From the NCBI RefSeq assembly GCF_050920415.1, contig NZ_CP169309.1: a stretch of 64,000 bases of DNA; one strand, given 5' to 3'. The stretch is from Escherichia coli. GTDB taxonomy: Bacteria > Pseudomonadota > Gammaproteobacteria > Enterobacterales > Enterobacteriaceae. Below, piece by piece: positions 12,701 through 15,700 of this stretch (position 1 is its first letter; each line of letters opens with the position of its first letter). Made by a program: the position numbers.

Positions 12701-15700
12701 AGAAAGCAGCACAATTCGTGGCTTATTCTTTGGTTACTCTCATTCTGATATTGGTTTTGATCGCGGCGGTAAAGGCAATGTCGATAGCTATACCCTGGGG
12801 GCTTATGCCGGTTGGGAGCATCAGAACGGTGCCTATGTTGATGGGGTGGTGAAAGTTGACCGTTTTTCCAACACCATCCATGGCAAGATGAGTAATGGGG
12901 CAACAGCGTTTGGCGATTACAATAGTAACGGCGCGGGTGCTCATGTCGAGAGCGGGTTCCGTTGGGGGGAGGGGTTGTGGAATGTAAGGCCTTATCTGTC
13001 CTTTACCGGCTTTACCACTGATGGTCAGGACTATACGTTATCAAATGGTATGCGAGCGGATGTGGGAAATACCCGCATATTACGCGCTGAAGCGGGAACG
13101 GCGGTAAGCTATCACATGGACCTGCAAAACGGTACGACGCTGGAACCCTGGCTGAAAGCCGCCGTGCGTCAGGAATACGCCGATTCTAACCAGGTGAATG
13201 TTAATGACGACGGCAAATTTAATAATGACGTGGCTGGAACCCGTGGCGTTTATCAGGCTGGGATAAGGTCATCGTTTACCCCGACGTTAAGCGGTCATTT
13301 GTCAGTCAGCTATGGCAATGGCGCGGGGGTAGAATCACCGTGGAATACCCAGGCGGGTGTGGTCTGGACGTTCTGATAACAGAAAATAAACAGGCCGTAA
13401 TGTGTCGCGGTCTGTTTATCAAATTAATCGCAGATATAAAAAAAACCAACCGCAATAGGTTGGTTTTTCTTGGGATTTTTGGTCGCACGAGAGTAGTTTA
13501 ATTGAGTGTATAACTAAATGATTTTAAATAATATTCTTTATTCAACTTTTAAATCGTATAACCAAACGTATAACTAAAATAATTTGCTGAAAAAGTGTAC
13601 AATTTCAGCAATAATTGCCCTAGCGACTATCATCCTGCTCCCCGGATTTTTTCCGGTTAAATGTTAATCAGGCTGCTGGGCTTTGCCTGTTCGGTAGGTG
13701 TAATGATTATCGTAATACTTTTCCCCCAATGGGGTAAAAGCATCAACCGTAACGGAAGTCGTTATGGTTGCCTTGATGATCTGCGTGGTCATTATGACCA
13801 TTCAGCCAATGACCTTAATCAGAGCTTTTCGCTAAAAATGACGTTGGCCACTCGTCCGAAAAGCACAAAATCCCATCGATTTTTAATTAACGGTTAAACC
13901 GTCTTTTTGTCACGTCGTGTCACTGGTTGTCACTCTCCGTCACGATCTCCGATAGCCTGGCTGCAAATTAAACTACGAAAATTTCGTAGTTCTGACTTCT
14001 TTCAGATAGTCGGTTGCCTGGTTACACGAAAAAAATTACTTCCTGCGTTTATCCCGCTTTGTATGTCCGTGCTGAATGCCCCGCAGTGGATCTTCTTTTT
14101 TCAGGTCGATCCCCATGTCCGTTAGTGTTTTTGTGGCGGCGGTTCTTATGGCACAAATCAGGTCTCTTTCCGGTTCCCGGGTTATGGTTGCCTTCCGGAT
14201 ACATGCCGTTCGTCGTTCCGTTACATACTGACGCGCTTCATCACTTGCCGCCTGTTTCAGTAACTCACCCCAGCGATTAGCCGCCCGTCGCCATAAACCT
14301 TTCGCTTCCAGTTCTTCCGCTTTGTCATCATGCACCATAAGCATAATCCCATTGATACCTGTTAAATCTGAATGGTTGGTTTCCGTTCTTTTGATAATTT
14401 CCCTCATAGCTTATTGTATGACAGTACTGTCCCACAATAAGGAATCACACATGAGAATGACCAGGCACAAAAAACAGATTCTTGAACTTTACAAACCTGA
14501 GTATCGCGATTGGGTGCGGGTGGAGGCCGGAGATCCGCCTTTTGATGTTCGTGGTGTGACAGTGCTGCTCTATGGTTCCGAATATCAGCGATATCACATA
14601 GAGGCAACCCGACGAACGTTAAACGCTATGGTAAATGATGGGATCCTGTACCGCGTGAAAGTGCGCGAACCCCGCTTTGATGTGCGTATCGGTAGCGATG
14701 GCGCTCACTGTACGGTAATCCGGTACGGGCTGGGTAAATCAGATGATTAAATCACCAGAATGTAAATTTACATTCTGCCAGCCACCAGCTACAGAACGCA
14801 AATTTGCACTTTGCTGAAATATTAACGGGTTAGGCCAGAGTGCAAATTTGCATTATGCTTTAACTTCAGCAAGTTACCGCCGTAACCGCTCCGGCTTCTT
14901 CCACTGGTACGTTATTTTGGCTTTTTCCCTGTACGTCTGTATCCGGCGACGGTAGGCCAGCATTTCAAGAACGCGGATCCGTATGTCGCGCATATCCGCA
15001 TCATTAAGCTGGATACCATCACGGTGCATCACCTCAGCAACCACACGAACATAATTTTCTGCGGTCACGCTGTCCGGCTGCGTGGCCTGTTCGTCAGCCT
15101 GCTGGTTGATTCCGGCGACGCGGCGGATTAATCGCAGTAGTTCGGTTTCTGTCATTGTGCCCCCATCGCGCTGGTTAAGAAAACAAGCTCAGATTTTTTG
15201 TAAAGAATCTGTCACGCTAAAAGATGTCGAACAAAAAACAACCTTCTCCATCATCTTTTTTGCATCGATTACATTAAAAACAACAGGTTACATACATGAT
15301 GATGATGACGATAAAATCACAAAAATGCGCTTTTTTCCGCGCCCGCCCGCCCCGTGTTCATACCCACCCCACCAGGAGGACCCGCAAAAAAGGCGGCTGG
15401 TGCCGCCTTGTTGTCATAGTGAATCGGTACCGCCTGATTTGACCATACCGCGATAATCCAGAGCGGCCACACCAGCATCAATACGGACTTTCCAGGCCAC
15501 ACCGTCAACGATGAAACCTTCCTGCTGTTCAAGGTAAGGCTCGTCATTGCCATCAAGATAAGCCACCTCGATTGTGTCCGTTCCCTGTGCGGAAAGCATG
15601 TACCATTGTTTTTCGCTGATATCATCAAGGCGGGGATCGACGATAATATCCAGTAGTTTGTGATACGGGTTAAAGATCCCGCTGTTTTTATCTGCCCCGA

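Follow-up and report, generated by a model that had tools for sequence, protein, structure and literature searches.

The island and its TGTCAC array

The DNA analysed here is a 64-kb stretch of an Escherichia coli chromosome (contig NZ_CP169309.1), called the window below, in which a 10.8-kb phage satellite has nap-ccm-narP-yejO to its left and yejM (lapC)-yejL to its right. The satellite was placed at 13481-24305, in the tRNA-Pro gene proL, by comparison with the empty site of strain K-12. It is of the phage-inducible chromosomal island (PICI) type. The main genes of the island are all located on the − strand and encode an integrase, an AlpA-like helix-turn-helix protein, an Icd-like protein, a DUF4222 protein, a primase of 582 aa, a fusion of a ClpP protease with a major capsid protein, a protein of 93 aa (phrog_1561) and a PerC-family protein. 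Both this gene set and its one-directional layout match the published description of Gram-negative PICIs (PMC6092414). The subject of this study is an array of short direct repeats near the end of the island that is distal to the integrase gene (int). The features needed to place it are the following.

13908-13943, + strand: the array, four (T/C)GTCAC units phased at 10 bp (GTGAC x4 on the − strand, which carries the island genes)
13866-13907, + strand: A+T-rich flank (about 70% A+T), always adjoining the array
13480-13494: int-distal attachment (att) core (TGGTCGCACGAGAG), a degenerate duplicate of the tRNA-Pro 3' end, from the comparison with the K-12 empty site
24290-24305: int-proximal att core, within the intact 3' end of tRNA-Pro(GGG) proL
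14874-15155, − strand: conserved satellite gene for the 93-aa protein (phrog_1561)
14036-14407, − strand: PerC-family gene (perC)

The array reads ccgtcttttTGTCACgtcgTGTCACtggtTGTCACtctcCGTCACgatc, with TGTCAC at 13908-13913, 13918-13923 and 13928-13933 and CGTCAC at 13938-13943. A sequence-only reading of this DNA had reported four such hexamers near the distal island end, together with a palindrome that is discussed further on; the four starts, their exact 10-bp start-to-start spacing and the location of both elements near the int-distal end, where the att core copy lies at 13480-13494, were all confirmed. Taken over the whole window, YGTCAC hexamers are not enriched (58 found against 55 expected). 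The string GTCAC-N5-GTCAC-N5-GTCAC occurs once in the window, against 0.01 expected from shuffled sequences.

Conservation was assessed on sequences that had been retrieved through anchors in the flanks, so that the array played no part in their choice. Eleven distinct array variants were obtained, all with intact pentamers. None of the 20 pentamer columns was variable, against five of the 15 spacer columns, a distribution with a p of approximately 0.009 under random placement of the variable columns. The same retrieval gave two more variants, from which the array is cleanly missing. Copy number across satellites is four or five; in two lineages a single unit of exactly 10 bp has been lost. 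Since no two spacers are alike, this is not a tandem repeat that slipped recently. As far as sequence can tell, invariant pentamers combined with insertions and deletions of 10-bp units mark an array that a protein binds on one face of the DNA duplex.

The distribution of the array was determined in 45 non-redundant related islands anchored on the 93-aa gene, of which 25 have it and 20 do not. It accompanies both primase-type and RepA-helicase-type replicons, occurs with three packaging modules, and is found nearly base for base with at least three integrase/att types (proL, clpS side and phoQ side). In the minimal arrangement seen in relatives, 6-16 nt separate the stop codon of the 93-aa gene from the start of the array. 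No island protein cluster tracked the array among the 45 islands (the best was present in 9/25 islands with the array and 0/20 without), which suggests a factor supplied in trans. Of 5426 complete E. coli genomes, 249 (about 4-5%) have the array with its flank, always on the chromosome and never annotated. The best explanation of these sequence data is that of an accessory, non-coding, iteron-type array, a candidate for protein binding, at the 3' end of the single operon of the satellite.

Phage arrays and the satellite array

IMG/VR viral contigs were scanned for four GTCAC-N5 units, and at least 120 loci were present among the matches listed. In at least 42 of these, a homologue of one family of replication initiators contains the array in the sense orientation, and about 17 are satellite ends. 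The residues encoded by the array were masked before comparison and the family was delimited by a masked single-sequence search; its iterative enlargement with hidden Markov models (HMMs) was discarded because it drifted onto the peptide encoded by the array.

The initiator has a length of 300-380 aa, and in lambdoid prophages its gene takes the place shown in the order cI-cro-cII-[initiator]-[P-like helicase loader]. The protein matches PHROGs annotated as 'replication initiation protein' and, with a DnaT-like C-terminal part, the Pfam DnaT domain, while its N-terminal part is named 'phage replisome organizer' in database records. The named phages Evi, Tritos and vB_EcoS-640R1 carry it. A gene for the N-domain was found in 2180 of the 5426 complete E. 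coli genomes (about 40%), which makes possible helpers of this kind common.

In the E. coli subfamily the intragenic array reads GTCACGAAAT GTCACGACAT GTCACGGCGT GTCACTACGTG GTCACATTGAT GTCAC; L200 has six copies and phage Tritos four. Two prophage arrays of this kind (L200 7864-7925, six copies, and L443 2636-2671, four copies) differ by 21 bp; this change is in-frame, and the initiator gene thus tolerates the gain or loss of iteron units within its coding sequence. Distant members of the family, from G+C-rich hosts, have the array in the middle of the gene, followed by a purine- and A+T-rich run of the GATAAAGATAAAG type, a layout shared with the lambda origin inside gene O. The lambda origin lies within O and oriL of SPP1 within gene 38, which encodes G38P; SPP1 has a second, non-coding origin, oriR. 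Because the origins recognised by lambda O and SPP1 G38P are embedded in the genes of these proteins, we infer by analogy that the GTCAC arrays are the origin iterons of the initiator family.

The satellite and phage arrays share the unit T-GTCAC-G/T in direct orientation. Its spacing is 10 bp in the satellite versus 10-11 bp in the phages, and the copy number four to five versus four to six. A T precedes GTCAC in 75% of the units of the satellite arrays and in 65% of those of the phage arrays, a G or T follows in both, and a 17-nt string, TGTCACGGCGTGTCACT, is common to the two. The satellite array thereby has what would be expected of origin iterons, namely at least four direct repeats, about one helical turn apart, with the same core as the intragenic arrays. 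It does not lie beside an initiator gene of its own: a tblastn comparison found no homologue of the initiator anywhere in the 64-kb window, the island included (best E = 1.2), and the array would therefore be served in trans.

On these grounds we propose, with a probability of about 0.4, that the array binds the replisome-organizer initiator of a helper phage and acts as an extra origin or as a decoy. A helper phage with such an initiator would develop in the same cell, and its initiator would bind the satellite array head-to-tail on one face of the helix. One outcome could be that helper-driven replication starts beside the A+T-rich flank (13866-13907), which would make the array a second, helper-dependent origin of the satellite. 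In the other, the amplified satellite DNA would titrate the initiator and so interfere with the helper. The sequences show the array, selection on its pentamers, its independence of the integrase, replicase and packaging modules encoded by the island, and a form identical to that of the intragenic phage arrays; the role of the phage arrays as origins, the binding of the initiator to the satellite copy and the effect of such binding are inferred. The wider version, in which many E. coli PICIs and capsid-forming PICIs carry helper origin iterons and capture the initiator for a second origin or to starve the helper, is put forward more tentatively.

The patchy distribution of the array agrees with an accessory adaptation to a single helper class. 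EcCICFT073, a satellite devoid of the array, is consistent with this proposal as well: its experimentally identified helper 'phage 4', which the annotation next to the island identifies as the icd-integrated prophage, has lambda-type O and P genes with canonical lambda iterons.

Several observations weigh against binding of a helper initiator. The core shared by the satellite and phage arrays is just 5-7 bp long. On the GTCAC strand the A+T- and purine-rich run lies 3' of the array in the phages and 5' of it in the satellite, so the geometry of the satellite site is inverted relative to that of the phage origins. The remaining GTCAC-N5 matches in the viral contigs include unrelated tandem repeats. 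Finally, satellites with the array and prophages with the initiator show few overlaps among the IMG/VR genome identifiers listed, a comparison which is uninformative.

A second group of satellite-like elements, unrelated to the present one, also has a non-coding TGTCAC array (L188-L190, L193, L198, L206, L229, L235 and L240). These elements are 8-13 kb long with about 62% G+C, encode a capsid protein, and have a terminase that is closest to proteins of Bifidobacterium. Their arrays consist of three to seven units of TGTCACCGTT or TGTCACTGAA in 10-bp phase and are located in the gap between terL and the portal gene (for example L189 5711-5745).

Alternative readings and neighbouring modules

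The sequence-only reading had described the phased repeats as typical of cooperative binding sites of recombination directionality factors (RDFs), integrases or activators, with the island integrase, AlpA and the PerC-like protein as candidate binders. The general idea of a cooperative array stood; the binders it named did not fit. Two sets of repeats nearer to the att cores bear on this.

13508-13578, + strand: three GTATAAC(T/C)AAA repeats, likely arm-type sites of the integrase in the distal arm
24103-24158: four GTATAACTAAA repeats, two inverted and two direct, between int and the att core, likely int-proximal arm-type sites

With one mismatch allowed, GTATAACTAAA occurs seven times in the 64-kb window (0.54 expected), in all cases at the island ends and no more than about 190 bp from one of the two att cores. 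These seven copies are probably the arm-type sites of the proL-specific integrase. Arm sites are expected in both arms within roughly 200 bp of the core, and to co-vary with integrase and att type. The array lies 414 bp from the core, has no int-proximal partner and occurs with different integrases, and the GTATAACTAAA copies fit the role better. An RDF array is expected to consist of helically phased direct repeats, as this one does, but also to lie between arm sites and core and to be present with its cognate RDF and integrase. The array lies beyond the arm sites, is lacking in 20 of the 45 related islands and is tracked by no island gene cluster.

That the array controls excision, as integrase arm sites or as AlpA (RDF) sites, is therefore considered very improbable. 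With its phased direct repeats and its int-distal position, the array does recall the Xis sites of lambda and the Cox sites of P2, and it is on the arm that bears the Xis sites in lambda. This resemblance is outweighed by its distance from the att core and its absence near int, where both arms are occupied by GTATAACTAAA, by the identical array found with different integrases and different arm repeats, and by the 20 islands of the same family that do without it. AlpA sites are also unlikely since no GTCAC cluster was found near alpA, in the promoter region downstream of it or at the start of the operon. PerC is not needed as a partner either, because in many islands the array directly follows another gene; L006 has the array and no annotated PerC.

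Other repeats were seen near the att sites and near alpA. In islands of the clpS-side and phoQ-side types, the att-proximal repeats are two copies of TTAACTACACC followed by three of CGAACAA in 10-bp phase (L003 5830-5900; L006 12510-12580; L280). From their sequence these would be the real arm or RDF sites there, differing by integrase type. In the window, the direct repeats CAGTGGGTACCGTTTT and ACGGTGGGTACTGTTTT, of the GTGGGTAC type, lie about 20 bp apart at 22395-22440, directly upstream of the alpA-like gene, and could be the control site by which a helper switches on alpA.

A different DNA-binding protein could read the array, be it the 93-aa protein, AlpA, the DUF4222 protein or a host regulator, and the array would then have a regulatory, architectural or partition-like role at the operon end. 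We regard this as possible but rather doubtful. The conservation of the pentamers shows that something reads the array, which in the minimal arrangement directly follows the end of the 93-aa coding sequence, and the association test on the 45 islands is blind to proteins present in islands with and without the array alike. PhoB, CreB and OmpR are examples of host response regulators that bind short direct repeats of a similar kind. The consensus sites of PhoB and CreB are, however, phased at 11 bp and not at 10 bp, and GTCAC clusters are lacking near alpA and at the operon start. The 93-aa protein itself is equally present in islands without the array and has no recognisable DNA-binding fold or family: its structural model consists of three helices with a pLDDT (predicted local distance difference test) of 71 and gave no fold match, and no Pfam, NCBIfam or other HMM matched its sequence.

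Two further explanations, both judged improbable, would dispense with a DNA-binding protein. The array could act in RNA or in termination at the operon end, as a binding or processing element in a 3' untranslated region (UTR) or in a terminator complex with the small hairpin in its flank; the minimal arrangement indeed makes it the 3' UTR of the last gene, followed by that hairpin and an A/T-rich run. Yet Rfam gave no match in the island except the tRNA, the array folded no more stably than shuffled sequences on the + strand (z = -0.7) and modestly more so on the − strand (z = -2.2), the latter signal being driven by the flanking hairpin, and strict 10-bp phasing with loss or gain of whole units is a feature of duplex DNA recognition. 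Alternatively, the array could be a functionless tandem repeat that hitch-hikes in the mosaic satellite ends. Its copy number changes by slippage-like unit indels, many islands dispense with it, and the region around it is a patchwork of short exchangeable modules. Substitutions nevertheless avoid the pentamers, the units are not copies of one another, with spacers that differ as they would not after recent slippage, and the same core is maintained in diverged lineages with different flanks (the L168 group versus the L243 group).

Some other identities were tried for the array and rejected. GTGACA resembles a -35 hexamer, but no conserved -10 box follows, and a sigma-70 promoter scan gave no site near the array. 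With matS, the site of MatP, the array shares the half-site GTGAC/GTCAC, but matS is an inverted repeat with a 3-bp spacer, and this form is not present here. A separate candidate, mimicry of lambda iterons by the palindromes CCTCAAATTGAGG and TCCCCCATTGGGGGA of the end region, was dismissed since the resemblance is loose and the arm spacing wrong. The roles of PICI origin and of cohesive-end site (cos) are assigned to other parts of the island.

18506-20254, − strand: primase gene, with the island origin directly 3'
about 18270-18500, − strand: predicted replication origin of the island itself, with many (G/C/A)TCTACC iterons in both orientations flanking an A+T-rich stretch, 3' of the primase gene
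15311-15408 and 17850-17947: duplicated segment of 98 bp, 79% identical, holding a cos-like core (CACGGGGCGGGCGGGCGCGG on the − strand)

In PICIs, the origin consists of Pri-Rep iterons around an A+T-rich region, 3' to the rep gene (PMC6092414). By this architecture the TCTACC region at about 18270-18500 is the predicted origin of the island. The array, a single set of repeats 4.3 kb away, is rejected as the PICI origin because the TCTACC iterons 3' of the primase gene fit the published arrangement. The two cos-like sequences of the window are at about 15340-15365 and 17880-17905; the 98-bp duplicates resemble cosN and its surroundings in lambda, and the pair recalls the two cos sites reported for EcCICFT073. 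The array was rejected as cos or cosB as the cos-like sequences lie elsewhere, as it occurs with three packaging modules and as the lambda-type cosN of L002 is 560 bp away from it.

The end region of the island holds several more elements.

13971-13991, − strand: 21-bp palindrome AACTACGAAA-A-TTTCGTAGTT, 10-bp arms around a central A
13806-13865: 'B-left', a conserved non-coding segment, a usual but not constant companion of the array
13642-13805: 'module A', non-coding and rich in short palindromes, common to about 1000 E. coli genomes

Within the A+T-rich flank are a small hairpin, ACGGT-TAA-ACCGT (13890-13902), and a CTTTTT run, but only ACCGTCTTTTT stays with the array in every lineage that has it. 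B-left in relatives contains a palindrome with 7-bp arms, ATGACGT-N5-ACGTCAT. It was found without the array in L249, L250, L252 and L259, and L168 and L147 have the array without B-left.

The palindrome that the sequence-only reading had placed near 13970 was located at 13971-13991 and is unique in the window (0.00 expected by chance). Read on the − strand, it gives a hairpin with a stem of 10 bp and a loop of 3 nt, 45 nt past the perC stop codon. The perC gene and an open reading frame (ORF) of 99 aa (14451-14750) form a cassette between the 93-aa gene and the palindrome and array, and the palindrome is probably a terminator-type hairpin of this accessory-gene cassette. The assignment is tentative because the hairpin is A/U-rich and its tail, UAAUUUG, has no clean U-run; a scan for the terminator consensus did not call it. 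Palindrome and array are separate modules and not parts of one site, and each is found in relatives without the other: L005 and L006 have only the array, L007 only the palindrome, and L002 has two copies of the latter. The end region of the satellites is a mosaic of short exchangeable modules, in which array, B-left, palindrome and module A each occur without the others.

The small ORFs of module A are not conserved on either strand. Two candidates for a small protein were rejected: the 78-aa ORF on the + strand (13661-13897) loses its start codon and frame in relatives, and the 45-aa ORF on the − strand (13801-13664) is truncated or frame-shifted there to 17-41 aa. A long palindrome, CCCCGATATGGGGATCCCCATATCGGG, and its variants adjoin the att-side end of module A in several satellites (L002 3398-3428; L445 3975-3995). 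Chi sequences (GCTGGTGG) recur in the non-coding ends of satellites (L002 3440-3470; L003 5945-5960 and 6030-6045; L006 12615-12680); the counterpart in the window, at about 13672, is mutated to GCTGCTGG. The DNA after the 93-aa gene (window 14792-14876; L002, L005, L006, L268 and others) consists of repeated short cassettes, which begin like the 3' end of the gene itself (GGCGGTAACTKGYTGATATT) and carry the AAATTT-centred palindromes GCGCAAAATTGCGC and GTGCAAATTTGCAC. Accessory genes such as perC have apparently been inserted between these cassettes.

Outside the island, an insertion of about 1.4 kb lies between ccmH and narP (window 8340-9800) and is absent from strain OkiPb01679 (L001). It contains two adjacent ORFs on the − strand, 8562-8810 and 8888-9541, of which the larger resembles a split transposase of the IS110 family.

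Comparison with known systems

Satellites are known to hijack the packaging of their helpers, by cos sites, Rpp and TerS homologues, and the assembly of the capsid, and are thought to replicate by themselves with Pri-Rep and an origin. If the array does bind a helper initiator, the initiation of replication would be a further point of conflict or dependence between helper and satellite, and mimicry of a replication site would stand alongside the known mimicry of the cos packaging site. The array would also be a sequence marker that predicts which prophages help which satellites, and a prophage replication module carried by about 40% of complete E. coli genomes would have TGTCAC arrays as its probable origins. 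Should this proposal be wrong, the array would still be a conserved, unannotated candidate protein-binding element in about 4-5% of complete E. coli genomes.

In the PICI literature searched, no description of helper origin-type iterons on a satellite was found, and a search of the literature for GTCAC iterons or for direct repeats of AlpA or PICIs gave nothing relevant. Iteron arrays and satellite copies of helper cos sites are both known; their combination in a satellite with iterons of the helper origin type, as suggested by the sequence, appears to be new.

With the lambda origin and SPP1 oriL, the satellite array shares four to six short direct repeats, helical phasing and a neighbouring A+T-rich stretch. 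It differs from them in being non-coding, in having no initiator gene alongside, in its position at the end of the satellite operon and in the side on which its A+T-rich flank lies, which is the opposite one. Short direct repeats beside A+T-rich DNA are likewise common to the array and the PICI origin (PMC6092414), but the array occurs with two unrelated types of replicase.

The arrays bound by RDFs, such as X1-X1.5-X2 of lambda Xis and the boxes of P2 Cox and 186 Apl, are phased direct repeats as well. They are bound cooperatively, and it is through Cox boxes that helper P2 can activate satellite P4. The satellite array is set apart from them by its position away from the att core, its independence of the type of integrase and its absence from many islands of the same family. 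The Cox boxes of P4 are a precedent for a helper protein that binds an array on a satellite.

Mimicry of cis sites of the helper by satellites is established for packaging, with the cos sites of PICIs and P4 and the redirection of packaging by Rpp and TerS (PMC6092414, PMC6739421). A copy of a helper cis site on satellite DNA would be common to those cases and the array, the process concerned here being the initiation of replication and not packaging.

The decoy version of the proposed mechanism has its counterpart in Per ('phage-encoded resistance') of lactococci, in which phage origins cloned on plasmids titrate the replication factors of the phage and so lower its replication. Per is a laboratory plasmid construct, whereas the repeats of the satellite would be one of its natural components.

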